From the NCBI GenBank assembly GCA_964016885.1, contig OZ024740.1:312666001-312730000 (forward strand): DNA of 64,000 nt. The letters are read 5' to 3'. The position numbers and the translations under genes were made by a program. The notes beneath the pieces are model-generated. The model ran no database searches. It saw nothing but the letters and a program-made list of their open reading frames with translations, and was not told the origin of the DNA. Shown here piece by piece: positions 10,584 through 52,990 of this stretch (position 1 is its first letter; each line of letters begins with the position of its first letter). The stretch comes from Eledone cirrhosa (lineage: Eukaryota).

Positions 10584-10816
<233 letters not shown>

Positions 10817-10829
10817 TACCACACCTAAT

Positions 10830-11809: not shown

Positions 11810-12450
11810 ATATATATAGATACATATATATGTGTGTGAACGAGTGCATGTATGTGTATATTTGTTTGTGTTTGTATTTGTATGTGTGTATGTATATATA
11901 TATATGTATATATGGATATATATATATATATATATGTATATGTGTGTATGTATGTGTTTGTGTATGTATGTGTATGAATGTGTGTATATGTATGTATAGA
12001 ATAGTTTATACCGAGAGACATACATACATGTATATATATATATACATATATATATGTATATATATATATATATATATACATATATATATGTATATATATA
12101 TATATATATATATACATATATATATGTATATATATATATACATATATATATGTGTATATATATATATATATATATACATATATATATGTATATATATATA
12201 TGTTTATATATATACATATATATATATACATATATATATGTATATATATATATATGTATATATATGTATATATATGTATATATATGTATATGTATATATA
12301 TGTATATGTATATATATGTATATGTATATATATGTATATATATGTATATGTATATATATGTATATGTATATATATGTATATGTATATGTATATGTATGTA
12401 TATGTATATGTATATATATGTATATGTATATATATGTATATGTATATATA

Positions 12451-12481
<31 letters not shown>

Positions 12482-12590
12482 GTATATATATATATATGTG
12501 TATGTATATATGTGTGTGTATATATATATATATGTATAGATATACATATATATGTGTGTGTAAGTGTTTATGTATGTGGTTGTGAGTATG
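11810..12590. repeat. Long (TA)/(TATATG) compound microsatellite
   Basis: Seen directly; accounts for the YIYIY ORFs. Confidence 0.95.
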
Positions 12591-12929
12591 TAAATATATT
12601 TTATTCTTTTCATTCTACAAAAACACTCTGGCCACCTTTAGCTTGTATGTTAACTTGACCATAGAACAATGATCTGTGCCATGATTCGGTCTTGTTTATC
12701 TTCTAATACCAACCCACCTAAAAAAAATTTCCCTACTATATATCTGTTGATATTCTTGGGGTTTTTATTTAATTTTATTTGTTTGTTTATTTACTTACTT
12801 TTTCTCTTTTTCTCTTTTTCTTTTCCTTTTATTTTACAAAAGCACTCCGGCTAATTGACCACTCCCCAAAGAAAAAACGGTCTGTGCCATGTTATGGTCC
12901 TGTGTATCTAAATACCAACCTACCCCAAA

Positions 12930-14170
12930 AATTATACAGACCATACCATAAGCCCGGTGAGGTTCTATCTTATATCAATTACGCTTCTAACCACCCTAAG
13001 TCTACACTCAACTCCATAGTCTATAGCATCTCCCATAGAATCTTGAGGCTCTCTGCTAATGAGGAACTCTTCAACCAAGCAGCTGAGTACTACAATAGGG
13101 CATTAGCTGACTCAGGTTATAACCGTGAAATTTCCTACCTCCATAATGCTAACTCTATAACCCCCCCATCTCGGACTAATGTTATAGTGAGCCATACCTA
13201 TAACCAACCACATCACACCCACGCTATTGTAACAAATAGTAGAATAGATAATCGCACCAATAAATACAGCCCGCATGGTAATTACAAAGGTAGCAGGACT
13301 GGTGTATTACCGCAACTAAAGTGTCATGGTCTGGTTAATAGTAGCAGATGCAGCCTACTTGAGTTATTCCCTGCTTACAGGCTTAATAAATGTAATGGCC
13401 TATTACCTACACCTTCTAACCCACCTACGGCTACAGGGAACCACCACACGGACATTCGGGCATAACGCAAACAAAATGCACATTAGGCAGCAACACATTA
13501 GCAACAATAAGAACGCATCTGACAATGTTGGTGGTAACCTTGACCAGCACGATCGCCGCTATAGTAGCGCGACTGATGGCTACAGTAGTGACCATAATAG
13601 TGTGAGCAACTACAGTAGAAAGCGCTGTAACATACGATGTACGCATGGTACTACCCTGTGCGTCCTTAGCTAGGGTAATACTAACGACAATAATAGTAGC
13701 CGTTGTGCTGATAATAATAATAATAATATTATGGTGGGTACTAACAACCATCACTTTGGAGGGGACCATAGTAAGCACTGCAACTGTCGTGACCCTGCTA
13801 ACTGTCCGCTCCGGGGCCAATGCCTAACTAAAAATGTTATATATAGATATACTGTTACTAGCCACAATAGTGTCAAATATTACAAAGGGGTCACTTCTGG
13901 GTCGTTCAAGACTAGATTTTGAGCGCATCTCCACTCTTTTAAGAATAGGAAACTAAGATACTCTATATCCCTCGCCAATTACATCACCCACTTATTGGGA
14001 AATTGTCAACCAGGCAACATCCTACAACTTCAAGAAAAAATGCCAGCTCTGTCTTATGGAGCTGTACTATATAGTGCAAGGACCCCCAGATCTCATCAAC
14101 AGTCGAGCCGAAACCGTCATCAATTGCAGCCATAGACTACAACAGTCGTTCTATAGATGGACCCCGGATA
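12930..14170 (+). mobile_element. Degenerate Penelope-like element (RT C-terminus and GIY-YIG)
   Basis: YRPYHKPGEVLSYINYASNHP..YYNRALADSGY, and later CNCRDPANCPLRGQCLTKNVIY..YKGVTSGSFKTRF*. Confidence 0.75.
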
Positions 14171-19262: not shown

Positions 19263-19326
19263 ATATATATATATATACATGTGTTTAGGCTTTAGGTTTT
19301 AGCCTACTTTGTCACAGTAGAAAGTA

Positions 19327-19373
19327 AATGTCTCTGATGATGGATAAAGATTCAGAAATAGCTATCTGGCATT
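19327..19373 (+). ncRNA. Minimal hammerhead ribozyme candidate; inverted copy at about 41044-41090
   Basis: aatgtct CTGATGA tggat aaag attca GAAA tagct ATC tggcatt; palindromic stem III ATAGCTAT. Confidence 0.6.
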
Positions 19374-20137
19374 CTAATCTCAATTGAGATAGCTGTGACA
19401 TGATCACAAATTCATAGTGACATTCTCGTATGTTTATTATACATAGATGTGTCTGCCACTATTGAAGAAATGTAAATGTTGATAACATCAAAAGTAGAAT
19501 TACAAAAGCAAACAGTTTACCTAAAATGTTACCATTGTTTAGGAGTATTGAATCAAAAATAATATAATCTAGTAGTTCTGAGACCAAAGTTATATTCCTT
19601 TATTTACAATCTCAGGTGTCCCCTTTTTTCAATTGTCATTTAGTAATTTTCTTATTTGGTTATTTAATTTTCTTATCATTATACTTTTACAGACTGATAG
19701 CAGCTCATCTGAGGGAGTCCCCCGTGAGGTGGGGTGGCTGTTGCAGGGGGTGTCACTGGCTATTGTCCATGGAAATGCCTTTTCCATTTTGTCTGCGTGA
19801 TGCAGCCAAACCATCTCGCTGACCTAGGTGTAGAATCTGTCACCTTCTCCTCTTCCCCCTTTCTTTCTTCCTTTGTCAAGTAGTCCTTGCTCTTCATCTT
19901 TCTCTCATTTATGGCATTTATAGTCCTTTCCAATACTGCTTTCTTTTTCTGTATGTTTAACAAATTTATATTTAATAAATTATTAAATCAAATTTATTTA
20001 ATCAAATTACTTTATTAATTGCAATCAAATGGAAAATGAAATGCTGATTTTAACACATCATAAAACTTCTATTTTTCTATTTGAGTTAATGCCCAAATAT
20101 GCTGCTAGGAAGGTCAAAAAACACTAAGTGCTATGAA

Positions 20138-20262
20138 GGCATGTGGCTTGGTGGTTAGAGAATTGGATTCACAATCATGAGGTTGTGAGTTTGATTCCTA
20201 GACCAGGTGATGTGTTATGGCCTTAAGCAAGACACTTCATTTCACGTTGCTCTTTCTGTCAG
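20138..20262 (+). mobile_element. SINE tRNA-like head and core fragment (copy at about 40190-40315, minus)
   Basis: tggcttggtggttagag..gagtttgattcc..ccttaagcaagacacttc. Confidence 0.65.
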
Positions 20263-21129
20263 CTATTGTGACTTGGTCCAATTGGATAAATTCCATCTCA
20301 CTCAAGTAAGCAAATGAGGTCTGGAATCTTATTGATTCCCTAAGTGCTATGAAAAGTAAAACAGAGGGTAATAACAGATTCCTCACAACATAAATCTTCT
20401 ATTTGATTTAATGACCAGAGAAACTAAACTAGAAATCCAGTTTTCTTTTTTTACTCACAACAATCGAGGGGAGGAATCTGGAATTAAAGTGACTGTCTGA
20501 AATATTGTTGAAAATGATAATTGGGTTTTCACCAAATGTTTTGCAGCCTTTCATCATAACTTAATGGTCCTTTCTACCATATCAACCTTGATAACTGGTC
20601 CCACTGTTGGGTCAACTTCAGTTAGTCTCTCTCTCAGTCTATCACACACTCTCCTCATTCCGCAACATCACATCACCACCGTTTAACATACATTTTTCCA
20701 TGCTTGCATGGGTTAGACAAGTTGTCCCATTGTGAGACAAGCCAGATCAGATGACGTCTTGCTCATACAGAACTGATTTGGAATTGTTTTCTACGGCAGG
20801 GTGCCCTTCCTAACGCTAACTACATTTACAGAGTGTACTGGGTGCTTTTTGTCGTGACAGTAGCATTTTCATACTACTTAACATCAATAATGGCAAGTGT
20901 GCCACAATTTCACCATAAATATTTTCACTGACTTCAATGTCTCTCCATGGGAGGAGTGGTCTATGTGTCTTCTGAGTAACTGATAATTAGAGGCACCATA
21001 CTTTCTGGCATGATTAGATATATCAGTGAGTTCTATTGTATGGCCTGAGACTTCTTAACTATATGGCTACATTTATTGTTACATTAGATATCTTTTACAG
21101 AGAATGTATTTTGTCACTGATGTGGTAAC

Positions 21130-21775
<646 letters not shown>

Positions 21776-23617
21776 TTAGTTACATTGTCTCTCTCTTGTA
21801 TGAGTATGTTTGTGAGTATTCAATTGACTTTTATCAGAGAATGACTTACCACAGATAATACAAAGATATGGTTTCTCTCCAGTGTGAGTACGTTTATGAG
21901 TATTTAAGTTACTTCTTACAGAGAATGACTTACCACAGATATTACAGTGATATGGTTTCTCTCCTGTATGAGTACGTTTGTGAGTAATTAGTTGACACCC
22001 ATCAGAAAATGATTTACCACATACATCACAGTGGTACGGTTTCTCTCCTGTATGAGTACGTTTGTGAATATTTAAGTAACTTCTTACAGAGAATGATTTA
22101 CCACAGATAACACAAAGATATGGTTTCTCTCCTGTGTGAACATGTTTGTGAATATTTCTTTGACTTCCATCAGAGAATGATTTACCACAGATATCACAAT
22201 GATACGGTTTCTCTCCTGTATGAGTACGTTTATGAGTAGTTAAGTTACCTTTTACAGAGAATGATTTACCACAGATATCACAGTGATATGGTTTCTCTCC
22301 TGTATGAGTACGTTTGTGAATATTTAAGCTACCGCTACAAGAGAATGTTTTACCACAGATATCACAAAGACATGGTTTCTCTCCTGCGTGAGAACGCCAG
22401 TGACACACTAATTGACCACCTTCTGACAATGATTTATCACAGTGATATGGTTTCTCTCCTGTATGAATACGTTTGTGAGTATTTAAGTGAGATTTTATAG
22501 AGAATGATTTACCACAGATATCACAGTGATATGGTTTCTCTCCCGTATGAATACGTTTGTGAGTATTTAAGTGAGATTTTATAGAGAATGATTTACCACA
22601 GATATCACAGTGATATGGTTGCTCTCCCGTATGAATACGTTTGTGAGTATTTAAGTGAGATTTTATAGAGAATGATTTACCACAGATATCACAGTGATAT
22701 GGTTTCTCTCCCGTATGAATACGTTTGTGAGTATTTAAGTGAGATTTTATATAGAATGATTTACCACAGATATCACAGTGATATGGTTGCTCTCCCGTAT
22801 GAATACGTTTGTGAGTATTTAAGTGAGATTTAATAGAGAATGATTTACCACAGATATCACAGTGATATGGTTTCTCTCCCGTATGAATACGTTTGTGAGT
22901 ATTTAAGTGAGATTTTATAGAGAATGATTTACCACAGATATCACAGTGATATGGTTTCTCTCCCGTATGAATACGTTTGTGAGTAGTTAGATAGGTTTTT
23001 ATAGAGAATGATTTACCACAGATATCACAGTGATATGGTTTCTCTCCCGTATGAATACGTTTGTGAGTATTTAAGTGAGATTTTATAGAGAATGATTTAC
23101 CACAGATATCACAGTGATATGGTTTCTCTTCTGTATGAGTACATTTGTGACTAGTTAATTGTCTTGCTTCAGAGAATGATTTACCACAGATATTACAGTG
23201 ATATGGTTTTTCTCCTGTATGAGTACGTCTATGAGTATTTAAGTAACTTTTAACGGAGAATGATTTACCACAGATAACACAAAGATATGGTTTCTCTCCT
23301 GTGTGAATACGTTTATGAATATTTACTTGACTTCCATCAGAGACCGATTTACCACAGATATCACAGTGATACGGTTTCTCTCCTGTATGACTACGTTTGT
23401 GAATGTTTAAGCTACCTCTACGAGAGAATGATTTCCCACAGATATCACAGTGATATGGTTTTTCTCTTGTTTGAGTACATTCATGAGTAGTGAGGTCACA
23501 TTTTTGTGAGAATGGCTTACCACGTATATCACAATCATATGTTTTTCCTTTCTCTTTCTTCCTTTCAACAGAGTGTTTCTTCAATTTAACCTTATTCTCA
23601 CACAATTCAGTTTCCAT
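21776..23617 (-). CDS. ZNF-B: tandem C2H2 zinc-finger protein, 21 fingers (2 degenerate)
   Basis: ORF 21776-23740; its listed start is a TTG inside the VNTR, and the first in-frame ATG is at 23617 (METELCENK). Confidence 0.85.
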
Positions 23618-23695
23618 AATTCTAATTCTCACACCCCATTCCACAGATGTTTTTCTTGTCTTTCTATTTATTTTATTCCCAATATATATTTCTTC

Positions 23696-24708
23696 TGCAA
23701 TATTTCCTTCAACTCTGATCTTTACCAATATTTCCTTCAACTCTGATCTTTACCAATATTTCCTTCAACTCTGATCTTTACCAATATTTCCTTCAACTCT
23801 GATCTTTACCAATATTTCCTTCAACTCTGATCTTTACCAATATTTCCTTCAACTCTGATCTTTACCAATATTTCCTTCAACTCAGATCTTTACCAATATT
23901 TCCATCAACTCTGCTGATCTTTATCAATATTTCCATCAACTCTGCTGATCTTTATCAATATTTCCATCAACTCTGCTGATCTTTATCAATATTTCCATCA
24001 ACTCTGCTGATCTTTATCAATATTTCCATCAACTCTGCTGATCTTTATCAATATTTCCATCAACTCTGCTGATCTTTATCAATATTTCCATCAACTCTGC
24101 TGATCTTTATCAATATTTCCATCAACTCTGCTGATCTTTATCAATATTTCCATCAACTGTAATCTTTATCAATATTTCCATCAACTGTAATCTTTACCAA
24201 TATTTCCATCAACTGTAATCTTTACCAATATTTCCATCAACTGTAATCTTTATCAATATTTCCATCAACTGTAATCTTTACCAATATTTCCATCAACTGT
24301 AATCTTTACCAATATTTCCATCAACTGTAATCTTTATCAATATTTCCATCAACTGTAATCTTTACCAATATTTCCATCAACTGTAATCTTTATCAATATT
24401 TCCATCAACTGTAATCTTTATCAATATTTCCATCAACTGTAATCTTTATCAATATTTCCATCAACTGTAATCTTTACCAATATTTCCATCAACTGTAATC
24501 TTTATCAATATTTCCATCAACTGTAATCTTTATCAATATTTCCATCAACTGTAATCTTTACCAATATTTCCATCAACTGAAATCTTTATCAATATTTCCA
24601 TCAACTGAAATCTTTACCAATATTTCCATCAACTGTAATCTTTACCAATATTTCCATCAACTGTAATCGTCATCAATATTTCCATCAACTCTGATCTTTA
24701 TCAATATT
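23696..24708 (-). repeat. 28-bp (partly 31-bp) VNTR, about 35 copies, between the splice acceptor and the ZNF-B CDS
   Basis: Minus-strand unit gATGgaaatattgataaagattacagtt; sub-arrays have AAG in place of ATG or a 3-bp insertion. Confidence 0.9.
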
Positions 24709-24911
24709 TAAAGATGCTACAATATCTGTTGAAACCCAAGCTTAAATAGAATACAAAATCATCTTTTAGATATTCCAGAAGAAATATTTCAGAGTAATTC
24801 TCAGATTTATATAAACAGGGTTATATCTGTTGTGTATAACGTCTTCCTTTAGTCTTTAAAAGATGACAAATATTGATGATACATCTTTTCATGTCAATGT
24901 CATGTGATATT

Positions 24912-24930
24912 CTGAAATAATAAATAAATA
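24912..24930 (-). promoter_or_regulatory. Splice acceptor for the ZNF-B exon
   Basis: Minus strand tatttatttattatttcAG|aatatcacatg, matching the paralogs. Confidence 0.6.
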
Positions 24931-25189
24931 GAATAAAATATAGAGGATACTTATAATGTAGAGATTCAACAGTAACAATTACACCCCATTTCTATACTGA
25001 TAAACTGACGATATAAACCTTTATCTAGATATTTGAACTTCACTTTTAATTTATTAAAATTACATCATATAAATATCATCTGCTCTTATCTTCACACACT
25101 AGACCGCTCCTCTTCTGCCACTCCTATTATCCCCTTACCTACACACCCTGGTCCCTCTGTCACTGCTGTTTCTTTTACCTTTCCCTACA

Positions 25190-25320
25190 GGGAAACTCCT
25201 GTACACTGATGATCTTGTCCTTATAGCTGAATACATAGGAAAGTTAGAAGCAAACAGGGAAGAAAAATCTAGAACGAAATGCATAAAAGTAAACTTAGCA
25301 AAGACTAAATTCTTAATAAA
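25190..25320 (+). mobile_element. Old RTE RT fragment shared by ZNF paralog introns (also about 56878-57003; remnants at about 425-460 and 35665-35700)
   Basis: KLLYTDDLVLIAEYIGKLEAN..KVNLAKTK. Confidence 0.65.
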
Positions 25321-28879: not shown

Positions 28880-29452
28880 TTTCGTGAAATAAAAACACAC
28901 AAGCACGTAATACACACATCTTAGACCACATAGAACAAAATGCAGGCAAAAGAAGTGGACAAACGAGCCGCTACCAGAGTAAAAGGTAACAATATAGCAA
29001 AGAGCACTGGGAAACCTCTCTAATAATTTTTGAGGCAAGCCAGCACGATCGCAGCGTTACCTTGGGTGATGGCGAGGCTGAGGTGCTGGAACAACCAAAT
29101 GCCCTCACGAGCATCACCAGTTACCTCTGTTTGGTGAGCCGCCAGTGAAGATAAGAACCTCACTGTCAGTAGCCCGACTCCCCCAAACGTCTCGAACGCC
29201 TCAGGCTGGATAATGTAGTTAGCTGACGGAACACAGTATTTTAAGATTTTGTTCCATTCAGCTGTGGCTCTCCCCCTTACCGCTGTATCCAGGATGTGGG
29301 AAGAAGCAAAAGAATCAGTAACTGTGACGTCCCAGATAAGGCATCTGCTTCTTGACCAGGAGCAGAGAGTAAGACGGTCAAGTCTTTTCCCATCAATTCT
29401 GGACAACCCAAACGGTTCCAAAATTGAGATGTTTGCCCGGGCCAAAGCTCTT
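28880..29452 (-). mobile_element. CRE-like non-LTR 3' portion
   Basis: ORF 29020-29445: EPFGLSRIDGKRLDRLTLCSWSRSRCLIWDVT..AFETFGG..WLFQHLSLAITQGNAA; same family as 6666-7462. Confidence 0.75.
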
Positions 29453-30882: not shown

Positions 30883-31741
30883 ACTTACCTTCACATTGGG
30901 TTTCAGCAGCAACCAGGATCTGTGATAGATTGTCACAGACAGCAAATAAAGCAGTTACTAGTAACAATAATTTCGTTTTTAATCAGATCAATAGATGTGT
31001 CGAAGAGGATGATAAAAAAAAAAAATGTGACACTTATTTCACGACTTAGTTTTCTCTGTAGGGGTGGTAATAGTTGCTTTCTTTTACTATTCTTCCCTAT
31101 AACACTTTCACATAAAGAATATATATATATATATGGAAAATTGAAAAATTAAGGTATTGTGTTAAAATACCTGGAATAATTAAGAGTTCTCTGTTGTATT
31201 TCTCTGGTAGTTATGTATTCTAATCTCTTTACAGAATTAGTCTAGATTCAGTCTTTGATTAATTACAAATCACTAGAAGAACATCCGACTTTTCCTGTGT
31301 ATTCTGATATGACAATCCTATTCATATAAGATATGTAATGGAATCAACTTCATTAAGTTGAAAGTCTAGCTCACAGTTGTTCTTAAAGATAATATGTCCC
31401 GTCAAGAAACTCGGCGTTCAATAAATACTTACTGATACCGGCTATATTCGCCGAGATTCTCGTTTAAATTTGTTCAAGTCAACGAGATAGCGTCTAATTA
31501 GAGAGTGCCACTCTACCGGCGGTCTAACACTGGTTATCTCCCATTGTCGTTATTATCATCATCATCGACTTAAGTAAGAAGAAGGCTGAGTAGAAATAAA
31601 GGCAACTCATATCACTGGATAAAGTTTTCTATCGACTCAACCATGGCTTCACCGGTTGTTGTGGCTGGAACAGTGATATCTGCAGGATTTGGCCTACATC
31701 TTGGTTCATCGGCTGCTTGTGTTGCTTTTACAAAGGTAACC
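30883..31741. promoter_or_regulatory. Candidate bidirectional promoter and non-coding first exons for ZNF-B (-) and ZNF-C/D (+)
   Basis: Minus-strand GTAAGT donors at 31427-31432 and 30883-30888, plus-strand AAG|GTAACC at 31736, and a locally CpG-richer unique stretch between divergent genes. Confidence 0.3.
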
Positions 31742-32564
31742 TTTTAAACTATATAAAATTCTTTTGTTTATGTTGATCTATTTAATTTACTTCCTAACAG
31801 TGACGAGTTCTGTAGAGTTTTGGTAATCATGTCTCGAGAACCTTCTCACTGATAAAGATACACATAAATTTACAGGGCGAAAACCCTCTGCCGTTCGGTG
31901 GAAATTGTTGTAATGGGGTATTTAGCTGGGCGATATCCAATTTTAGCGGCCTAAATGCCGCTTACTTGCTGTAGTTGCTGCTTACTTCAATGTATGAGGC
32001 TATTCCAACAAATTTACATTCCCCTTTTTTTAGCCGTTAAAAGAAATATAGATTTATTTATTGTTTGTTTTTTGCGATTTATTTGCCACTGGGGCATAGA
32101 TTTCTTTATTTGCCCCTTTTTTGTTTGTTTTTTTTTTTCGATTTATTAGCCTTTTGGGGTCACACACATCCCCGTAGAAAGTGTGCGACCTTTCTGCCAG
32201 GGAGCACAGAGAGAGGGGGGTGCTCCCTTCTCTTACCTGTACAAGCCGATATAGAGAGATGGCCCACTTACACGGGCCATTATTGCTACTTTCACCCATC
32301 TTTCATGGAATTGGCTGGGACTGAGTGCTTTTTTCTCCACCTTGATCCTTCTTTCGAAGTGGTATCGGAAGAAGAGGACCATTTGTTGGCCGGCGACATA
32401 TCCCCAGTTTCCTCGTTGCAAACGCATCTGGGACATTTCTTTTCCAAGGGGTTTCCGTCCCGGAATCCGTGTCTGTAGAGCCTTTCCCGAACGGGCAGGG
32501 CCCCTCGGTATAATAGTAAGTATTAGTGGTTGTAATAAAAATGCAATCAAAATGTAATAAATAC

Positions 32565-32700
32565 CTTCACTGATTTCTTTCCTTATATTATCAACAGAAG
32601 TTGGTATGTCACCTAAAGTTCGCTTTGTATGTTCCCGAATAGCAGTGAATTTTGATAAAACTGTTTCTAATTCCTTCTCCACAGTAAGACAAATATCCAT
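32565..32700 (-). pseudogene. RMND5: Captured RMND5/GID2-like first coding exon (left arm)
   Basis: MDICLTVEKELETVLSKFTAIREHTKRTLGDI..IRKEISE then GAAG|GTATTT; resembles the RMND5A N-terminus as recalled (MDQCVTVERELEKVLHKF..). Confidence 0.65.
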
Positions 32701-32874
32701 GTGTAGTTGAAGAGGATAAGTATGAAAGAACAGTCATTTAAATTTACAGATGGACAGATGTGGTGTTTGGCAGGGTTTGAGATATATAGAAAAATAATTA
32801 TTTACAGAAAAAGAAAATAATAATAAAGAATTATTATAATTTTTTTTAAAGATTTATATCTTTTTGGACTACAC

Positions 32875-33010
32875 ATGGATATTTGTCTTACTGTGGAGAA
32901 GGAATTAGAAACAGTTTTATCAAAATTCACTGCTATTCGGGAACATACAAAGCGAACTTTTGGTGACATACCAACTTCTGTTGATAATATAAGGAAAGAA
33001 ATCAGTGAAG
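32875..33010 (+). pseudogene. RMND5: Captured RMND5/GID2-like first coding exon (right arm)
   Basis: Same 136-nt ATG-to-donor segment, GT donor at 33011. Confidence 0.65.
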
Positions 33011-33064
33011 GTATTTATTACATTTTGATTGCATTTTTATTACAACCACTAATACTTACTATTA

Positions 33065-33530
33065 TACCGAGGGGCCCTGCCCGTTCGGGAAAGGCTCTAC
33101 AGACACGGATTCCGGGACGGAAACCCCTTGGAAAAGAAATGTCCCAGATGCGTTTGCAACGAGGAAACTGGGGATATGTCGCCGGCCAACAAATGGTCCT
33201 CTTCTTCCGATACCACTTCGAAAGAAGGATCAAGGTGGAGAAAAAGGCAGTCAGTCCCAACCAATTCCATGAAAGATGGGTGAAAGTAGCAATAATGGCC
33301 CGTGTAAGTGGGCCATCTCTCTAAATCGGCTTGTACAGGTAAGAGAAGGGAGCACCCCCCTCTCTCTGTGCTCCCTGGCAGAAAGGTCGCACACTTTCTA
33401 CGGGGGTGTGTGTGACCCCAAAAGGCTAATAAATCGCAAAAAAACAAACAAACAAAAAAGGGGCAAATAAAGAAATCTATGCCCCAGTGGCAAATAAATC
33501 GCAAAAAACAAACAATAAATAAATCTATAT
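33065..33530 (+). mobile_element. Probable L1/Tx1-like LINE 3' end inside the arm (mirror copy at about 32045-32510)
   Basis: GQQMVLFFRYHFERRIKVEKKAVSPNQFHERWVKVAIMARVSGPSL* followed by AATAAA and an A-rich tail; a similar tail lies at about 60381-60420 (minus). Confidence 0.4.
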
Positions 33531-33699
33531 TTCTTTTAACGGCTAAAAAAAGGGGAATGTAAATTTATTGGAATAGCCTCATACATTGAAGTAAGCAGCA
33601 ACTACAGCAAGTAAGCGGCATTTAGGCCGCTAAAATTGGATATCGCCTTTAGCTGCTACTGGAGTCATGCTGGTTGACATTAGTAAATGTTTTGTTGAA

Positions 33700-34290
33700 G
33701 AATAAATTCTCTGGTGACTGGGGTGATGCCGTGCTTGTGGCCAACATTGGTGGTCTACTCAGGATGAGCTCCGCATTTCCATTGCATTCAGAGTGGGAGC
33801 TGATGTCTGTAGGAGACCGAGATGTGACTGTGGTAGGTTCCTTGCGCCTACAGGGCTTCATGGTTTGTCTTGCTACCTGAATGGTGATCGTTTCGTTCAC
33901 CACACCGAGCTAAACCTGATCATTAATCGGACCCTAACTCGGATAAATATCTCGTCTGTTCTGGAGCCGACTCGAGTTTCCATTTGTCCCTGAGTAAGAT
34001 ATCTCATTTATGACTCCAAAGTCAGCGACTCTTTTGCTCTCACCCATATCCTGGATGCTGCGGTAGATGTAAAGGTTACTGCTTCCAGAGCCGAACTCAA
34101 TAAAATTCTAAAGTACCGGGGCATATCAGTAAACTCTTTCTTCCAGCCTAACATCGTTAGTGGCTCGCCATACCGAGATATCAGGTAATGCCTATGAGGA
34201 TACTTGGTTGTTTCAGCTCCTTTACCACACCATCACCTGCAGTAATGCTGCCAGTGTGTTGGCTTACCTAAAAAATATTAGAGGGAGGTT
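33700..34290 (+). mobile_element. Decayed CRE-like 3' portion
   Basis: FSGDWGDAVLVANIGGLL; CDCGRFLAPTGLHGLSCYLNGDRFVHHTELNLIINR (CCHC knuckle). Confidence 0.7.
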
Positions 34291-35240
34291 CCGATGCCCC
34301 CTGTCGTGTGTGACTCATTGACGTACTTAGTGTTGAATTGATGTTGCTTTTTGCTTTGGTTTTGATTGTATATTTTTGTGTATTTATAAGGTTCCACGAA
34401 TTCCATTTCTTTGTGAAACATTGAAGAAAAAAAAACTTCTACCATGCTATTCATGGGACCACAAAAAATGCGCCCAGTACACAATGTAAGGCGATTTGTA
34501 ATTTGAAGGGCATCCAACTATAGAAAATGTGCCAAAGAGCCAAAAGGATGCTTCAGTTGTGTCAAGGGCACAACTTTTTCAAGCATGACACAATAAAATG
34601 ACACAATAAAATGCACCCAGTACTCTCTGTATGGTAGTTGGTGAGAAAAAACAAAGTATCAAGAAAACTCTTCAGAACCAAAACAACCTCTGTAGTGCTG
34701 GTGTCACAATAACATGCACCTAGTGCACACACTTAAGTGTGGGAACATATATAAGAGAGATGTAGTTCCTGCCCTGCCAGAAGAGGGTAACTGGCTCCAA
34801 TTAAATAAAGAATTGGTCTGTAACAGGCCATCCAACCATTGCTAGAAGGAATTAGATGTTAAATGATGGTTCTGTATTATAATATATATATTTCATTGAT
34901 TTAAACGTTCGAATAGAGCTAGTAAGTCATGAGAGACTAAGGGATGTATCTAACACTTTACAGTTGAGAACAAAAAACAAGACAAACAAATAAGTGAATA
35001 TAAAAATGAAAATAAAGATATAATTTTAAATAGAAGGCAAAATAAGCATATGAAAAAAGGTAGTAATAGAATGGAAAACAAAGGCAGCTGGAAAGAAGCT
35101 AGAGGATTTTGTTGTTGAATCTTTTTGTAACCTCCATGTACTCAAAGATTTTGTTTATATTTGGTAGATCTTTTACAATATATTGTATCTCCAATCTTGG
35201 TAGTTTTTTCATGATCAGCTTCAAGCTGTCCTCTCTCTCA

Positions 35241-36062
35241 CAGACTGGTAGTTTCTACATTGGAACAAATAGTGCCAAAGAGTTTCTGGGAAGTCACCAC
35301 AAGATCTTAGAGGTGATTCCCTGCAACCTGTTCCTGATAAAATGTAATTCAATGGTATATACCCAGTTGAAAGCTAGCATAGTCTTGTTTTATTAACATT
35401 GCTCAGTGTCAGATATGTTTTAAATGTCAGATTTAGTTGAGTAAGTGGAGGATTGAAATTTGAGAGTTTATCTCTAGATTCTTCCTCAAATTTTTCCCAC
35501 CCTTCACTAATTATATTTTTGCTAAATGATTTCACTTGCAATAGATTTGGGACGTAGTCTATATGTATTATCTTCCTTTGAACTCCTTCCTTTGCTAATT
35601 CATCCGCTTTCCTATTTCCATTAATGCGTGTGTGGCCTGGTATCTACACATTCTAAAGTTGTGGATATAAAGACAAGATCATCAGTATTCAGGAGTTTCC
35701 ATGGAGGGAGAGATGGAAGAAAGAGCAATGACAGAGGGACCAGGGTATGTAAGTAAGAGGATAATAGGAGAGACAAGAGGAGCAGTATAGTGTCTGAAGA
35801 ACAGAGCAGATTATGTAATTTTAATAACAAATTAATAAGTGAAGTTTAAATGTCTAAGTAAAGGTTTATATCGACAGTTTATCAGTATAGAAATATTCTG
35901 TAATTTTTACTGTTGAATCTTTACATTTTAAGTATCCTCTATATCTGATACTGTTTCTTTATTATTTCAGAATATCACATGACATAATGTGGGAAAATAA
36001 GAAAAATTGTGGAATAAAGAACTATTTTCAAAACTTAAAAGATTAATTCGTCTCCTGAAAGA
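35241..36062 (+). repeat. Segmental duplicate of 1-1148 (intron end, acceptor, 5'UTR) with a deletion of about 320 bp
   Basis: Direct match starting cagactggtagtttctacattgg; after acatgaca it jumps to the tgtg(g/a)gaaaataag segment. Confidence 0.9.
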
Positions 36063-36864
<802 letters not shown>

Positions 36865-37045
36865 TAAAACATACTCATACAGATGAGAAGCCGCACAAAC
36901 ATACTCACACAGGAGAGAATCTATATCACAGATATCTGTGGTAATTTTTCTGAAGGTGGTAGCTTAGTTGTTCACAAATGCATTCACAGATGAAATAAGC
37001 CATATCATTTAACCTTGAATTACAAGACATTGTAGCATCTTTAAA

Positions 37046-37387
37046 TATTGATAAAGATCAGAGTTGATGGAAATATTGATAAAGATCAGAGTTGATGGAA
37101 ATATTGGCAAAGATTACAGTTGATGGAAATATTGGTAAAGATTACAGTTGATGGAAATATTGGTAAAGATTACAGTTGATGGAAATATTGGTAAAGATTA
37201 CAGTTGATGGAAATATTGGTAAAGATCAGAGTTGAAGGAAATATTGATAAAGATTACAGTTGATGGAAATATTGGTAAAGATTACAGTTGAAGGAAATAT
37301 TGGCAAAGATTACAGTTGATGGAAATATTGATAAAGATTACAGTTGATGGAAATATTGATAAAGATCAGAGTTGAAGGAAATATTGC
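37046..37387 (+). repeat. 28-bp VNTR, about 12 copies; the last ATG-bearing unit starts ZNF-D
   Basis: gatggaaat recurs at 37094, 37122 and 37150. Confidence 0.9.
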
Positions 37388-39182
37388 AGAAGAAATATAT
37401 ATTGGGAATAAAATAAATAGAAAGACAAGAAAAACATCTGTGGAATGGGGTGTGAGAATTAGAATTATGGAAACTGAAATGTGTGAGGATAAGGTTAAAT
37501 TGAAGAAACACTCTGAAGGTATTCATTGTCCTGTTGAAATAAAAAAAGAGAAAAGAAAAACATATGATTGTGATATACATGGTAAGCCATTCTCACAAAA
37601 ATGTGACCCCACTACTCATGAACATACTCATACAGGAGAAAAACCATATCACTGTGATAACTGTGGTAAATCATTCTCTCGAAGGGATAATCTATCTACT
37701 CACAAACGTACTCATACAGGAGAAAAACCATATCACTGTGATATATGTGGTAAATCATTCTCTATAAAAGGTAACTTAACAACTCACAAACGTACTCATA
37801 CAGGAGAGAAACCGTATCATTGTGATATCTGTGGTAAATCATTCTCTGATGGAAGTCAAAGAAATATTCACAAACATATTCACACAGGAGAGAAACCATA
37901 TCTTTGTGTTATCTGTGGTAAATCATTCTCTGTAAGAAGTTACTTAAATATTCACAAACGTACTCATACAGGAGAAAAACCATATAAATGTGATATCTGT
38001 GGTAAATCATTCTCTGAAGCCTGTCGATTAACTAGTCACAAACGTACTCATACAGGAGAGAAACCATATCACTGTGATATCTGTAGTAAAATATTTTCTC
38101 ATAGAAATAGTTTAAATATTCACAAACGTACTCATACAGGGGAGAAACCATATGAGTGTGACAGCTGTGGAAAATCATTCTCTGTAAAAAGTCATTTAAA
38201 TATTCACAAACATATTCACACTGGAGAGAAACCATATCTTTGTGTTATCTGTGGAAAATCATTCTCTGATAAAAGTCACTTAAATACTCACAAACGTACT
38301 CATACTGGGGAGAAGCCATATCACTGTGATATCTGTGCTAATTCATTCTCACAAAATGATCATTTAACCAGACACAAATATATTCATACTGTAAAGAAAG
38401 CATATCACTGTGATATCTGTGGAAAATCTTTCTTTGAAGTGAGTCGATTAACTAGTCACAAACGAACTCATACAGAAGAGAAACAATATCACTGTGATAT
38501 CTGTGGAAAATCATTCTTTCAAGCCACACGATTAATTAGTCACAAACATACTCATACAAAAAAGAAACCATACCACTGTGATATCTGTGGAAAATCATTT
38601 TACCTAGGCCTTAGCTTAAATAGACACAAACGTATTCATACAGCAGAGAAAACATATCACTGTGATATCTGTGATAAATCATTCCCTGACCGTAATGAAT
38701 TATATAACCACAAACGTATTCATATGGGAGAGAAGCCGCATCACTGTGATGTCTGTGGTAAATCATTCTCTGTAAGAGGTAACTTAAACACTCACAAACG
38801 TATTCACACTGGAGAGAAACCGTATCATTGTGATATCTGTGGTAAATCATTCTCTGTAAAAAGTCACTTAACTACTCACAACCGTACTCATACAGGTGAG
38901 AAACCATATCACTGTGATATCTGTGGTAAATCATTCTCTGTTGGCAGTCACTTAAAAACACACCAACGTATTCATACAGGAGAGAAACCATATCACTGTG
39001 ATATCTGTGGTAAATCATTCTCTGTTAGAGGTCACTTGAATAAACACAAACGTACTCATACTGGAGAGAAACCTTATCACTGTGATATCTGTGGTAACTC
39101 ATTCTCTGAAGGTTGTCAATTAGTTCGTCACAAACATACTCATATAGGGGAAAAACCACGTCGCTGTGATATCAGTGCTTAA
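37347..39182 (+). CDS. ZNF-D: tandem C2H2 zinc-finger protein, 19 fingers; paralog of ZNF-B
   Basis: Intact ORF from ATG 37347; N-terminus nearly identical to B. Confidence 0.85.
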
Positions 39183-41127
39183 TCATTCTCTGACAGTTGT
39201 AAATTAAATAACCACAATCATATTCATACAGGAGGAAGACCATATCAGTGTGATATCCATGGTAAATCATTCTTTCAAAAAGTTCACTTAACTAAACATA
39301 TGTATTCATAAGAAAGAGTTACCACATCAGTGACAAAATACATTCTCTGTAAAAGATATCTAATGTAACAATAAATGTAGCCATATAGTTAAGAAGTCTC
39401 AGGCCATACAATAGAACTCACTGATATATCTAATCATGCCAGAAAGTATGGTGCCTCTAATTATCAGTTACTCAGAAGACACATAGACCACTCCTCCCAT
39501 GGAGAGACATTGAAGTCAGTGAAAATATTTATGGTGAAATTGTGGCACACTTGCCATTATTGATGTTAAGTAGTATGAAAATGCTACTGTCACGACAAAA
39601 AGCACCCAGTACACTCTGTAAATGTAGTTAGCGTTAGGAAGGGCACCCTGCCGTAGAAAACAATTCCAAATCAGTTCTGTATGAGCAAGACGTCATCTGA
39701 TCTGGCTTGTCTCACAATGGGACAACTTGTCTAACCCATGCAAGCATGGAAAAATGTATGTTAAACGGTGGTGATGTGATGTTGCGGAATGAGGAGAGTG
39801 TGTGATAGACTGAGAGAGAGACTAACTGAAGTTGACCCAACAGTGGGACCAGTTATCAAGGTTGATATGGTAGAAAGGACCATTAAGTTATGATGAAAGG
39901 CTGCAAAACATTTGGTGAAAACCCAATTATCATTTTCAACAATATTTCAGACAGTCACTTTAATTCCAGATTCCTCCCCTCGATTGTTGTGAGTAAAAAA
40001 AGAAAACTGGATTTCTAGTTTAGTTTCTCTGGTCATTAAATCAAATAGAAGATTTATGTTGTGAGGAATCTGTTATTACCCTCTGTTTTACTTTTCATAG
40101 CACTTAGGGAATCAATAAGATTCCAGACCTCATTTGCTTACTTGAGTGAGATGGAATTTATCCAATTGGACCAAGTCACAATAGCTGACAGAAAGAGCAA
40201 CGTGAAATGAAGTGTCTTGCTTAAGGCCATAACACATCACCCGGTCATCTAGGAATCAAACTCACAACCTCATGATTGTGAATCCAATTCTCTAACCACC
40301 AAGCCACATGCCTTCATAGCACTTAAAGTGTTTTTGACCTTCCTAGCAGCATATTTGGGCATTAACTCAAATAGAAAAATAGAAGTTTTATGATGTGTTA
40401 AAATCAGCATTTCATTTTCCATTTGACTACAATTAATAAAGTAATTTGATTAAATAAATTTGATTTAATAATTTATTAAATATAAATTTGTTAAACATAC
40501 AGAAAAAGAAAGCAGTATTGGAAAGGACTATAAATGCCATAAATGAGAGAAAGATGAAGAGCAAGGACTACTTGAGAAAGGGGGAAGAGGAGAAGGTGAC
40601 AGATTCTACACCTAGGTCAGAGATGGTTTGGCTGCATCACGCAGACAAAATGGAAAAGGCATTTCCATGGACAATAGCCAGTGACACCCCCCTGCAACAG
40701 CCACCTCACTTCACGGGGACCTCCCTCAGATGAGCTGCTATCAGTCTGTAAAAGTATAATGATGAGAAAATTACTAAATGACAATTGAAAAAAGGGGACA
40801 CCTGAGATTGTAAATAAAGGAATATAACTTAGGTCTCAGAACTACTAGATTATATTATTTTTGATTCAATACTCCTAAACAATGGTAACATTTTAGGTAA
40901 ACTGTTTGCTTTTGTAATTCTACTTTTGATGTTATCAACATTGACATTTCTTCAATAGTGGCAGACACATCTATGTATAATAAACATACGAGAATGTCAC
41001 TATGAATTTGTGATCATGTCACAGCTATCTCAATTGAGATTAGAATGCCAGATAGCTATTTCTGAATCTTTATCCATCATCAGAGACATTTACTTTCTAC
41101 TGAGACAAAGTAGACTTAAAACCTAAA
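39150..41127. repeat. Inverted duplicate of 19290-21330 (3' flank of ZNF-D)
   Basis: Reverse-complement match. Confidence 0.9.
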
Positions 41128-43544: not shown

Positions 43545-46308
43545 TCCGGGGAACACACAAGCCAGGTAGATTATATCCTTACCAGAAGACGTGACAGAGT
43601 GTCTGTTGTAAACACTAAATCCCTCCCCCATGAAGAATGCACCTCCCAACATAGACTGATAATTAGCGACCTCATAGTCAGGACGAGACGTACTCGACAG
43701 CAGAAGAGGACTATCCTCAGGAGAAAAATATGGAAGCTAAAGGACCCCACAGCCAGAAATAAATTTCAAAGCATATTACTTGATGCTTTCGACAGTAAGG
43801 AAGAGCATTTAGAGTCGGACAATATAGAGGGACAGTGGGAATTTCTGAAAGCAAACCTGCTGATGGCGACAGACGAAGTCTGTGGCTGGAGCAGGCCTGT
43901 AGGCAGGAGGAGAGTAACATGGTGGTGGAACAGTAAGGTGGAGGGGACAATTAAGGCCAAAAAGCAGGCTTGGAAAGTATGGCGGGATGGGGGAAGTAGA
44001 GAAGACTATCAAGTGGCCAGGAGGGAAGCTAGGAGACAAGTGTACTTAGCAAGAAGGGAAGCAGAGGAAAGAAAGTTCAAGCATGTTCTACAACGCGAGG
44101 ACCAAAAACGTGAGGTGTTCAGGATTGCTAGGCAATGTGTCAAGGAAAACCGTGATATTGTCGGGGAGAAGTGTGTACTTAATGATGATGGCGTACTTGC
44201 CATCACCGACGCTGATAAGAAGGTAGCTTGGAAGTGCCACTATAAAAGGCTACTAAATGAGGAGAATAAATGGGAGAAAGACAGTCTCCCCCACATCGAC
44301 CCAATAGAGGGACCAGCAGTGTTAGTCGAGGGTAGTATAATAAGTAAGGCAATCAAGGATATGAAGACGGGTAAGGCGGCTGGGCCTTCGGAAATAGTTG
44401 CTGAGATGCTGAAGGCATCTGGCTCGGTGGGACACACCTTGGTCACCCGGATAGTTAACCAAGTCGTACAGAATGGCATAGCAGCATCATCGTTAACTGT
44501 TATAAGGGTAAAGGAGATGCCCTAGATAGGAGTAACTATAGAGGCATTAAACTAATCGACCAGGTCATGAAGGTCACGGAAAAAGTAATAGCGCAACTAA
44601 TCAGAGAGAGAATTGACCTAGATGAAATGCAGTTCGGGTTTGTGTCAGGCAAAAGTACCACAGACGCTCTTTTCATTGTACGTCAACTACAGGAGAAGTA
44701 CCTAGCTAAAGGTAAACCCCTCTACTTAGCTTTTGTCGACTTGGAGAAAGCCTTCGACAGAGTCCCCCGTTCCATTATCTGGTGGGCCCTTAGAAAACTA
44801 GGTGTCGACGAATGGCTTGTGAGAGCTATACAAGCCATGTATAAAGAAACAGTCAGCAAGGTTAGAATTAACAACGAATATAGTGAAGAGTTTAGCGTAA
44901 AAGTTGGCGTCCATCAGGGCTCTGTTCTCAGCCCCCTACTATTCAGGCTATAACAGAGGAGTTCAAGACCGGCTGCCCATGGGAACTCCTATACGCAGAC
45001 GACCTGACACTCATAGCTGAATCAATGGCCGAGCTAGAGAAGAAATTCCAAACATGGAAGCACAGCCTAGAATCAAAAGGCCTTAAAATTAACCTGGCTA
45101 AGACTAAAGTTCTAGTTTGTAGGAAAGAAAATAAGGCGGCGGTCCCTTCCGGGAAATGGCCATGCTCAGTGTGTAGGAAAGGCGTAGGTAGAAACTCCAT
45201 TTTATGTCCCAAATGCAAAGTATGGGTGCATAAAAGATGTAGTGGGATCACAGGTAAGCTAACTAAGAACTTAGATTTTACATGTGGCCGGTGCTCTGGT
45301 GCAATAAGTAGTGGCGAGTGCCCACAAAATACTAACTCTTTCAATTGCGCAGAGGGCTCTATAGAAATAGTGGACAGCTTCCGTTACCTGGGTGACAAAA
45401 TCAGCAGTGGGGGAGGGTGCTCCGAAAGTACAGTAGCTAGAGTCAGAACTGGATGGAAAAAGTTCAGAGAGCTTATACCACTATTAGCCGCTAAAGGGTT
45501 CTCCCTAAAAATGAAAGGCAGGTTGTATGATGCCTGCATACGAACAGCAATGTTGCATGGCAGTGAGACCTGGGCATTGTGCGCAGAGGATATACGCAGA
45601 CTAGAGAGGAACGAAGCTTGCATGCTCCGCTGGATGTGTAATAGTAATATACGTGAACGGCAAAGCATAAACGAACTAAGGAAAAAATTAGAAATAAGAG
45701 GGATCAGATGTTGTTTACTCGAGAGAAGGCTACGTTGGTACGGACACGTGATGCGCATGAAAGTCGACAGCTGTATAACAAAGTGCAGGGCAATAAAGAT
45801 AGACGGTAGCCACGGAATAGGCAGACCTAGAAAATCCTGGAACGAGCTGATAAACTCCGACCTCACACACTTACACCTCTCCAAGACAATGTCACTGGAC
45901 CGAGACCTTTGGCGGTACTCAGTAATAGAGAAGACCCGCCTTACCTAAATACATAGTAAAACCTACTACAGCCAGTAGGCATCTCTAACAAAATACACCC
46001 CGTCCCACCACCCACACCACCCCCTCCTATGTAAAGTTATGTTGGTGCCACAACATCCAGGCCGAAACAAATGAGATCGTGTAGGTGTCACGACAAAAAA
46101 ACACACAGTCCACGCTGTAATGTGGCCGTGTAGGCAACACGGTAAAAACCTCCCAGTCCCACACTGTAAATGTGGTTGGTGTTAGGAAGGGCATCCAGCT
46201 GTAGAAAACCTGCCAGACAGTCCTATGCGAGCAAGACAATCACTCTTGCTTCAAGTGGGAATACCCCCGTCCAAACCCATGCAAGCGTGGAACACGGACG
46301 ATAAACGT

Positions 46309-46339
<31 letters not shown>

Positions 46340-49826: not shown

Positions 49827-52800
49827 TCATATATAAAGAGTCTTGCAAAGCTTCTTGGGCCAATGTACTCGCCGACCGCTACGTGTGGTGGTGACATATG
49901 TAGGTGTAGGTGTGTGCGATGTTGTATGTGTATTGTGGCTTGGCTGATGCCAGGTGTATGTGGGGGGAAAATGGGGCTCTTGTGTGAGAGTGTCTGTATA
50001 GGCCCGTTTTACCCTGTCAATGGACACAGTCTCTTTTTTACCCCCAATGTCTAGGGTGAATAGCTTATCTGTGCGCTCAAGCACGCGATAGGGACCGGTA
50101 TAAGGTGGCATGAGAGGAGCTCTCACGGCGTCCTTTCGTAAAAAGACGTGGGTCCATGAAGCAATGTCTTTCGGGACCGAAGATTTGATTGTCTGTTGGC
50201 GAGGGTGCATAGGCGGAAGATTGCTGAAATATGATTGCAGTCTGCTCACATACAGAGCTGGGTCTGTTGCTGGTAGGTCCAATGGAGCTAACATCTGACC
50301 AGGCAGAGATATAGGCACTCCGTAAACCAACTCGGCGGGGGAGTAGCCTAGATCTTCCTTGATGGCTGCACGACAGCCCAGGAGGAAAATTGGTACATAT
50401 TCGCTCCACCGCTGCTGATCCGGATAAGTGCGCAGTGTGGCTTTCAATTGGCGGTGGAAGCGTTCAATCATTCCGTTAGAAGCTGGATGGTAGCTGGTCG
50501 TTCGAATGCGTTGCATTCCCAGGATCCTTGAAAGCTCTCGGAAAAGGTGTGACTCAAATTGTCCACCGCGGTCAGTGGTGATAGTGGCTGGAACTCCGTA
50601 ACGCGATATCCAACCCGATACTAGGGCTCGCGCTACAGATTCCACCGAAATGTCACTTAAAGGAATGGCTTCAGGCCAACGTGTGAAGCGATCTATGCAG
50701 GTCAGGAGGTATGTAAATCCTCGGCTGACCGGCCATGGTCCGACAAGATCTATATGGACATGGCTGAACCGAGCGTCTGGAGTGCTGAAAGTTCCAAGGG
50801 GTGCGCGGATGTGTTTGTGCACCTTTGACTTTTGGCAGGATAGGCAGGAACGTGTCCAGGCAGTGATGTCACGCCTCATATTAGGCCAGAAGAATCTAGC
50901 CGAAATGAGTTTCACTGTGGTCGATATTCCAGGGTGTGCCAGACCGTGCAAGGTGTCGAAAACTGCTCGACGATGAGTCACTGGCACTAGAGGGCGAGGT
51001 GCATCTGTCGAGGTGTCGCAGATAATCTGTGTGTCCGAAGTTGGCACAGGCAGATATGCAAATTTGCCAGTTGCAAATTCAGAAGACGAGAGGTCCAAAG
51101 TATCCAGAGGTGGTTGTTCTGTTGCCATTCGTTGGAGGTCGATTTCCGCTGGCGATGACAGGAAATTAATTGGGAGGCGAGACAGTGCATCTGCCGCCGC
51201 ATTCTGTTCACCAGAGATGTGTCGGATATCGCTGGTAAATTGCGAAACGAAGTCCAAGTGGCGAGTTTCGCGAGGTGAATATTTGTCCGGCTTAGAACGC
51301 AGTGCGAACGTAAGCGGACGGTGGTCAGTGTATATAACAAATTGGCGACCCTCCAGTGAATGCCGAAAGTGTTTCACTGCAAGGTACATAGCCAAGAGTT
51401 CACGGCCGAATGTGCTATACCGTGTTTCTGCAGGCTTCAGCTGTTTAGAAAAGTAGGCAAGAGGTTGTAACTGTTGTTGGTGATGTTGTTGCAGTACTGC
51501 ACCTACAGCTGTGCCTGATGCATCAACAACCAGTGAAAACTGGGCACCAGACACAGGATGTGCAAGCAGTGATGTCTCCGCAAGCTTCCGCTTCACTTCG
51601 TCGAAGGCTTTTAGCTGATTCGTGTCCAATGAAATGGAATCGTTCTTCTTTTTCCTGTTACGTAACAGGTCGGACAGAGGAGACAGGAGATCCGCACAGT
51701 GTGGGATAAAGCGCCTGTAATAGTTCAGTAGCCCAAGGAAATGTCGTAGTTGACGAAGTGAAGTGGGTGGTTGGAGGTCTTGTACCGCTTTCACTTTATC
51801 AGGTAGTGGCGAAATTCCTTCTGGGCTGATGACATGGCCCAAGAAGACAAGTGAGGAAGCACCGAAAGCACATTTTGCCGGATTAATTCTCACTTGGTAT
51901 TTTTGAAATCTCTCGAACAGGAGACGGAGGTGAGTGACATGTTCCTCAGGTGAGGCACTTGCCACAAGAATGTCGTCGATGTAGCTGTACACGAAGTCTA
52001 AATCGCGCACAACTTCATCCATAAATCGTTGGAACGTGCTGGCTGCGTTTCGTAAACCAAAAGGCATGGTCAAAAATTCAAACGCTCCAAATGGAGTTGT
52101 TACTGCAGTTTTAGGTATGTCTGCCGGATTCACCGGGATTTGGTGGTATGCTTTGACCAAATCCAATTTGGAGAATATGTTGCATCCATGCAGCGAAGAT
52201 GCAAAATCCTGTATGTGTGGTATCGGGTAGCGGTCGGGTACCGTCATTGCATTTAACCGGCAAAAGTCCCCAGTGGGACGCCAATCACCGGAACGCTTTG
52301 GTACCAAATGCAAGGGTGCGGCCCACGGGCTTGAGGATGGGCGAATGATCCCGAGCTGCAGCATGTGATTGAATTCAGCCTTTGCGGCCTTCAGTTTCTC
52401 AGCAGAGAGACGGCGAGGGCGCGAAAACACAGGAGCGCCGGATGTTTCAATGTGGTGCTTGGTGGAGTGAGTAGGCTCACTCATCACAAAATTCAAATTT
52501 GTTAATTCCGGGAAGGAATGCAAAAGTGATTGGTAAGGATCTTCTGTAGCAGCGATAAAGAAGACCGGGCTGACCGACGAGACAGTCGATCTGGTACCCG
52601 GCACAGACAGTTCTGTGTTGGCATCCAACAACCGGCATCTGCGCATATCCACTATCAAGTTATAGTCGTGCAGGAAATCTGAGCCTAGGATGGGGTAAGG
52701 CAGATCAGCAACAGTGAAGATCCACGTGAAATCTCTACGCAATTCCAGGTTCAAAGAACGAGAAATCTGACCGTACGTGGGGATCGGTGACTGGTTTACT

Positions 52801-52990
52801 GCTTGCAGAGAGACGGTTGAGAGTTGGGGCTTCTCTTTGAGAAGTTTTAGCGGCCAAATGCTACAAGCCGCGCCGGTGTCGATCAGACAACGTGCTTGCG
52901 ACTCAGTGTCTGTGATGAAAAACACACGGTTATTAGGGAGGGTCAGAGGAGACTGTGCCGTGCTCAGGTCTCCTGAAATCTGTTTCCCTG
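49827..52990 (-). CDS. pol: Pol polyprotein (protease, RT, RNase H, integrase), entered by -1 frameshift
   Basis: [52 protein letters not shown]. Confidence 0.95.
52946..52988 (-). promoter_or_regulatory. -1 ribosomal frameshift signal
   Basis: G GGA AAC in the gag frame, followed 7 nt later by the stem AGGAGAC..GTCTCCT. Confidence 0.75.

Follow-up and report, generated by a model that had tools for sequence, protein, structure and literature searches.

Capture of host gene pieces by TIR elements, which an earlier note on this DNA took to be described mainly in plants, has been described in animals too (PMC8277862). The Drosophila element Ssk-FB4, a multicopy Pack-MULE, and the frog element Pack-hAT-N8_XT resemble the element reported here in being non-autonomous, carrying a piece of a host gene, having long TIRs and having spread by transposition; animal Pack-TIRs also carry cargo with 5′ upstream DNA and form chimeric transcripts with their neighbors, again as here (PMC8277862). 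In contrast, the cargo of the animal Pack-TIRs lies once between the TIRs, whereas the present cargo is found in both arms and faces outward both ways (PMC8277862). Acquired sequence in extended TIRs, as in this element, is described for plant Pack-MULEs, which differ in having 9- to 11-bp target-site duplications (TSDs) and hosts with strong siRNA pathways, the present element being from an animal and probably Merlin (PMC3310237); promoters within Pack-MULE TIRs have been described as well (PMC5861414). The non-autonomous Galileo 2RT copies of Drosophila mojavensis, whose TIRs are the longest, resemble the present element in recruiting internal sequence to both TIRs (TIR1-F1-F1-TIR2), although Galileo belongs to the P superfamily, makes a 7-bp TSD and recruits its own spacer rather than a host exon (PMC3573991). 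The Merlin superfamily, for which GG ends and an 8- or 9-bp TSD are the stated signature, shares with the element GG termini, an 8-bp TSD, long TIRs with internal repeats and the existence of non-autonomous members, and the TIR length observed here falls within the range of the Repbase entries Merlin-1_DR and Merlin-N5_DR, which have 1000-bp TIRs (PMC8101967). Unlike Merlin proper, the element lacks a transposase, and host-exon cargo goes unmentioned for Merlin in the consulted portions of that paper (PMC8101967). Octopus Merlin proteins are listed in its supplement (PMC8101967), and two recently active Merlin families are reported from O. vulgaris (PMC13282606). The main text of the animal Pack-TIR study holds no mention of Merlin, octopus or mollusc (PMC8277862). 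The open-access literature yielded no description of the present element, nor of a Merlin element whose two arms both carry a host exon; repeat libraries or supplements may hold one.

The element occupies positions 31929–33647 of the window, i.e., the whole stretch of 64,000 nucleotides of Eledone cirrhosa DNA that was analyzed. It is a non-autonomous foldback element of 1719 bp with fully symmetrical termini (GGCGA..TCGCC), enclosed by an exact 8-bp direct repeat, TTTAGCTG, on the + strand at 31921–31928 (left TSD) and 33648–33655 (right TSD). Three occurrences of TTTAGCTG lie on the + strand of the window; the probability of finding it at a given position by chance is 2.4e-5. The left arm (31929–32707, 779 bp) and the right arm (32868–33647, 780 bp) differ at nine places, eight substitutions and one indel, and flank a spacer of 160 bp (32708–32867). 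These features of length, direct repeat, termini, near-identical arms and spacer had been given in the earlier note, and all of them held upon re-measurement, as did the presence of a 136-nt exon, running from ATG to GT donor, at the inner end of each arm (32875–33010 on the + strand and 32700–32565 on the minus strand); the two exons point outward. No transposase ORF and no long ORF of any kind is present in the element, none of the three element peptides scanned matched a Pfam family, Rfam returned no match at E ≤ 1 over 31300–34300, the ESM Atlas gave no usable match, and a second copy of the element is absent within the 64-kb window.

Contigs of four of the thirteen sequencing runs (X1, X4, X5 and X6) were compared at 88% likeness, and those of three of the four at 95%; the other nine runs (X2, X3 and X7–X13) lay outside the comparison. 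Run X4 bears no RNA label, and its RNA nature was recognized solely from a spliced host contig. Contigs drop minor variants, and neither strand nor start site is readable from them. Runs X5 and X6 are labeled as two other organisms and nevertheless carry near-identical element contigs (0–2 differences; 32678–33009), X5 having in addition a contig that covers the exon and upstream DNA at 10% divergence; close kinship, cross-contamination or recent transfer may account for these contigs, the three being indistinguishable. Contigs of X1 share the end of the element at 88% likeness and depart from it at 32138. Since relatives are alike to about this position and unlike beyond it, the core TIR probably measures about 210 bp (31929–32138, mirrored at 33437–33647), and two 35-bp subterminal repeat units (32053–32087 and 32117–32151) lie within or near it. 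At one mirrored base, 32961/32614, both arms depart from the family consensus by different changes, with T in the right arm and A in the left arm (read on the minus strand) as compared to G in the consensus of all four runs.

The element is real and mobile and is not an assembly fold-back. An empty site is spanned in two of the four runs, by a 761-nt contig of X1 (depth 13.9) and an 1166-nt contig of X4 (depth 7.1), both of which skip 1727 nt, corresponding to the element (1719) plus one TSD (8), and retain a single TTTAGCTG; empty-site alleles of this kind were what the earlier note had proposed to look for. The lack of left-flank cover in X6 and X5 was given no weight as evidence. The empty-site contigs read G in place of the C of the window at 33656 and differ along the right flank at 9 of 369 positions (X1) and 36 of 646 positions (X4), such that the empty site may represent a divergent allele or a paralogous site. 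The existence of other copies, expected at the outset, was borne out by contig depth tens of times that of the flank and by two X4 contigs that leave the terminus into other flanks. In X1, depth was 641 for the exon contig, 332 for the spacer contig and 8–13.9 for flank contigs; in X6, it was 517 for the exon (two contigs) and 250 for the spacer, the arm-to-spacer ratio being approximately 2:1 in both runs. These depths suggest about 24–40 copies, contig depth being a rough estimate rather than a copy count. A 219-nt contig of X5 spans 32678–32897 (the whole spacer and 30 bp of each arm) without a substitution, and both arm-spacer junctions are present in independent runs. The palindrome is long and near-perfect, and the whole element is spanned by none of the listed contigs, as would be expected of the assembly fold-back that had been named as a possible artefact, or of a one-off local inverted duplication. 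However, the nine differences between the arms, the TSD with its empty site, the junctions in independent runs and the excess of depth over the flank reduce either of these to a negligible probability. With regard to classification, the element has the features of a Pack-TIR, namely an identifiable host parent (RMND5 exon 1), TIRs with a TSD and a non-autonomous nature. With neither a transposase nor an autonomous partner seen, the element is judged by its GG ends and TSD length only, and it likely belongs to the Merlin superfamily: the TIR starts with 5′-GG, and the skip of 1727 nt corresponds to a TSD of 8 bp. The hAT and P elements also give 8-bp TSDs, one of the points in favor of an origin outside Merlin, be it in MULE/FB, hAT or P/Galileo. 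Such an origin would also accommodate the long TIRs with internal repeats and the gene capture, which are typical of MULE/FB (PMC8277862) and of Galileo (PMC3573991). We consider it unlikely, given that the TSD measures 9–10 bp in FB4 (PMC8277862) and 7 bp in Galileo (PMC3573991) and that GG ends together with 8 bp are what is stated for Merlin (PMC8101967). The earlier choice of Merlin or MULE thus narrows to Merlin as the likeliest, the TSD of 8 bp falling short of the 9–11 bp of MULE/FB. A metagenome scan with the first 20 bp of the element returned a single match, on a bacterial-looking contig; this contig has no further likeness to the element, and the match was dismissed as chance.

Sequence comparison identifies the cargo of both arms as RMND5 coding exon 1, with the donor at the conserved exon boundary. 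The exon of the right arm (32875–33010, + strand) comprises 45 codons and one nucleotide and is followed by GT at 33011, and that of the left arm (32565–32700, minus strand) has its ATG at 32700. A search with the 45-aa peptide, the check that had been proposed for the suspected likeness to RMND5, gave 45 protein matches at E ≤ 1e-3, the best being P0001 at 84% identity. The protein P0049, named RMND5A (O. vulgaris/O. bimaculoides), is identical to the right arm at 38 and to the left arm at 39 of 45 residues, a match that points to octopus as the likely source of the DNA. A direct PDB search with the peptide reached RMND5A at E 0.084, and a word-index protein search with it found no match; the identity was settled by a profile of 16 sequences, which retrieved human RMND5A (8pjn) at E 1.4e-7, and by relatives, a spliced one of which retrieved human RMND5A at E 2.8e-24. 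Most of the 45 matches appear to be genomic ORFs running into the intron. The 34 matches with a readable register, one of which is a spliced protein, have G, C or S at this residue 46 (31, 2 and 1 cases); the other 11 are unreadable, and the spliced P0049 has V at this position. Because G, C or S at residue 46 is what results from reading through an N|GT phase-1 donor, the donor of the element corresponds to a conserved exon 1 boundary. Over 129 nt of the exon, a host-type contig of X4 (1435 nt) differs from the element at seven places, and the six listed differences each restore the host residue. The family differs from the host at six sites, each of them a nonsynonymous change (the sixth, K40R, being placed from protein comparison), with no stop and no frameshift. 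Six of six nonsynonymous changes have P 0.21 under neutrality, compatible with an exon that drifts neutrally, and there is no sign of purifying selection; positive selection on the exon was considered and ruled out by the same value. Variants at single-copy depth in X6, with loose ends at 32912 and 32735, show an apparent 45-nt deletion within the exon and another interior beyond 32735–32738.

Host DNA in the element probably extends beyond the exon. A contig of X4 (depth 66.9) connects the start of the exon with 32708–32756 of the spacer, showing two differences, and low-depth contigs of X4 and X6 share the sequence from 32806/8 to 32848 and then depart (two of the three runs at 95% likeness), a contig of this upstream homology being missing in X1. 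Together, the exon-linked contig and these shorter matches indicate that the spacer probably consists for the most part of DNA from upstream of RMND5, a reading beyond the earlier note, with 32708–32848 probably representing RMND5 5′ UTR/upstream DNA that continues the left-arm exon on the minus strand. The right arm keeps just 7 bp of RMND5 upstream DNA. On the other side of the exon, the 55 bp that begin with the GT donor (33011–33065 on the + strand, mirrored at 32510–32564) are probably RMND5 intron 1, although the intron read-through of P0001 matches this piece for the first three codons only, which counts against a host origin. The sequence from 33066 to about 33420 (+ strand, right limit approximate, mirrored at about 32155–32509) is a piece of a repeat with very high copy number in two DNA runs, the summed contig depth reaching 6e4 in X6. 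Many contigs are unlike the element before 33065, the repeat piece being cut at its 5′ side, and the AATAAA/A-rich tail recurs as a repeated subterminal unit. The suggestion of a probable LINE 3′ end made for this sequence is partly supported. The piece has a very high copy number and is 5′-truncated at 33065; protein searches, including Pfam on the inner ORF, found no match and gave it no name. A LINE origin is plausible, and the repeat may correspond to an L1-Tx1-like C terminus. At 33065, X1 contains two forms, one that continues as the element (depth 556) and another that does not (approximately 143, by subtraction of bin depths). In X6, the other form alone is seen (294), 33066–33075 is uncovered at 95% likeness, and the arm-to-spacer ratio is already 2:1. 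The simplest reading would be two rounds of mirroring, with the exon first and the repeat piece later, which matches the TIR extension of Galileo (PMC3573991) and of plant Pack-MULEs (PMC3310237). A 6-bp hairpin at 32848–32863, where the upstream homology ends, was considered as a scar of template switching and rejected, being at chance level in AT-rich DNA. A T-rich tract at 32836–32852 (+ strand), whose terminal AG lies 23 nt upstream of the right-arm ATG, is a candidate weak acceptor that would create a 159-nt cassette exon.

In one RNA contig the captured exon serves as the splice donor for foreign sequence, an observation that likewise goes beyond the earlier note. In X4, the 1435-nt contig (depth 99.5) is host RMND5 mRNA and leaves the exon exactly at the donor; this splicing identifies X4 as RNA. 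At 95% likeness, the host contig is gone and a 1939-nt contig appears (depth 11.2), the first 30 nt of which are identical to the element-type exon end (32981–33010) and are followed by foreign sequence. When compared by hand, the loose-end lines obtained in X4 at 88% likeness (mixed) and 95% likeness (pure) differ at 11 of 30 places. Nine of these places are fixed by the host exon 2 codons (VPADHEVSATQ, P0049) and all nine fit, consistent with the two contigs being the host mRNA and a chimera, respectively. Depths in X4 were 31.5 for the element exon, 21.4 for its unspliced continuation and 11.2 for the spliced form. A loose end at the donor was found in neither of the two DNA runs at 95% likeness. 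Read in frame by hand, the foreign part supplies one residue and a stop, with an ATG two codons later. The stop one codon past the junction precludes a long fusion protein, and, given the ATG that follows, the captured exon would function as an upstream ORF of 46 codons rather than as a fusion domain. The chimera is represented by one contig from one run, of an individual other than that of the window. Its partner has no match in the window with up to three mismatches allowed, and X4 has the empty allele at this site; the chimera is therefore probably the product of another copy of the element and not of this locus. Some 190 bp to the left of the element, at 31643–31737 (+ strand), lies an ATG-started ORF of 31 codons ending in AAG|GT, which is partly covered by an X4 RNA contig (31585–31709, depth 17.7, four differences) and has no PDB or Pfam match. 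The ORF may resemble the opening exon of HSPA14, an Hsp70-like gene, and could be either another stray first exon or the exon whose intron hosts the element.

Taken together, we consider it probable that a foldback DNA transposon occupies the locus, mobile and non-autonomous and likely of the Merlin superfamily, and that it carries RMND5 exon 1 and its donor in both arms and serves as a portable first exon at some of its copies. The presence of RMND5 exon 1 in both arms, the TSD, the empty site and the many copies agree with the earlier view of a foldback Pack element that had captured host DNA into its arms. According to the proposed sequence of events, a segment of approximately 340 bp from the 5′ end of RMND5 (some 148 bp of upstream DNA, the exon and at least 55 bp of intron) would have been captured beside one TIR, and repair between the arms or template switching would then have copied it to the opposite arm, extending the TIR. 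The high-copy repeat piece would have been mirrored later by the same route, and a transposase acting in trans would have carried the element to tens of sites, the exon presumably drifting neutrally once captured. Transcripts from the captured upstream DNA would run outward through one arm only, giving no fold-back, and some copies would donate the exon as first exon to neighboring transcripts. The same Pack element could instead be a pure neutral passenger without effect on its neighbors, the chimera being a rare by-product, a reverse transcription or assembly artefact or a DNA copy truncated at the donor. This is a doubtful though far from negligible alternative, which draws on the single contig and run of the spliced form, the stop in frame one codon past the junction, the neutral drift of the exon and the broken single-copy variants of X6 (loose ends at 32912 and 32735). 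However, the break falls exactly at the conserved donor, the very base at which the host mRNA leaves, and the spliced form, which went unseen in two DNA runs, amounts to about one-third of the depth of the element exon (11.2 against 31.5). More far-reaching, and in our estimation improbable as a whole, is a two-way portable gene start, in which central RMND5 promoter-proximal DNA would drive exon and donor outward through either arm, tens of polymorphic insertions would supply 5′ exons bearing an upstream ORF to either side, read-through dsRNA would be marked by ADAR, and arm-to-arm copying would mirror new cargo. If the portable-exon reading is true, it provides a concrete and testable route for exon shuffling in octopus, and a mollusc would then carry a probable Merlin-type Pack element that has the exon in both arms and splices it into a foreign transcript. 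Precedents exist for each ingredient (animal Pack-TIRs, extended TIRs and 1-kb Merlin TIRs), and the gain lies in their combination and in the empty-site and splicing evidence.

The palindrome bears on a further alternative, in which the locus acts as a hairpin-RNA regulator whose dsRNA of about 780 bp is diced to siRNAs that silence RMND5; fly hpRNA loci are a precedent for dsRNA hairpins diced into siRNAs. Folding of read-through RNA into dsRNA of this length, as claimed previously, was upheld by calculation, with 773 of the 779 left-arm bases pairing with the right arm and the fold of the inner 777 nt having a z of −60.8; by the proposed mechanism, read-through from the flank alone would give the 780-bp duplex, a likely ADAR substrate. 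Since an X4 RNA contig covers the empty site (depth 7.1), the site is transcribed, and carriers would probably make read-through RNA; furthermore, young repeats are the main targets of A-to-I editing in animals (PMC9989829). Despite these points in its favor, silencing by the hairpin is very improbable, and the siRNA part of the earlier note found no support. Molluscs, O. bimaculoides included, are described as having no dedicated siRNA pathway (PMC12479628), of the 116 windows of 21 nt in the exon, only 20 are a perfect match to the host (the seventh difference being placed by inference), and host mRNA is abundant, with a depth of 99.5 as compared to 31.5 for the element exon in the same RNA run. 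In addition, nothing indicates that the exon has been kept matched to the host, all six family changes being nonsynonymous, and the only difference between the window and the X4 exon contig falls at the family-consensus site 32961. Mismatches at 88% likeness numbered 9 A>G, 12 T>C, 10 C>T and 4 G>A in the X4 RNA contigs as compared to 8, 11, 7 and 7 in those of the DNA run X1, with no clear excess of editing type, and no majority-level editing of the exon was seen in the contigs, which drop minor variants. Two transitions specific to X4, at 32333 and 32357, are indistinguishable from copy or individual differences. Presence or absence of the element at this site offers a natural control for the effect of an 800-bp perfect hairpin in an animal that edits heavily by ADAR and lacks a dedicated siRNA pathway.

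The surrounding window consists of a C2H2 zinc-finger cluster and retroelements. C2H2 zinc-finger genes at 19291–25314 and 35241–41127 are arranged in a large inverted duplication with shared 28-bp tandem arrays, which includes a 949-nt stretch at 100% complementarity (20201–21149 and 39298–40246). The right flank of the element (33704–33809) is a decayed multicopy repeat with a relative at 7278–7387 (78%), and further repeated stretches are found at 28955–29451 and 6689–7177. At 44837–46327 and 58741–60375 lies an inverted pair of RT-like elements, 96% identical and 13 kb apart, which we take to be of RTE type. A Ty3/gypsy-type retrotransposon on the minus strand (49827–54004) contains a gag-like ORF and an unbroken pol ORF of 1061 aa with protease, RT, RNase H and integrase. 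A Penelope-like element on the minus strand (62399–63859) combines RT and GIY-YIG in an ORF of 486 aa, and similar-looking Penelope-like fragments surround TA microsatellites at 10587–13465.
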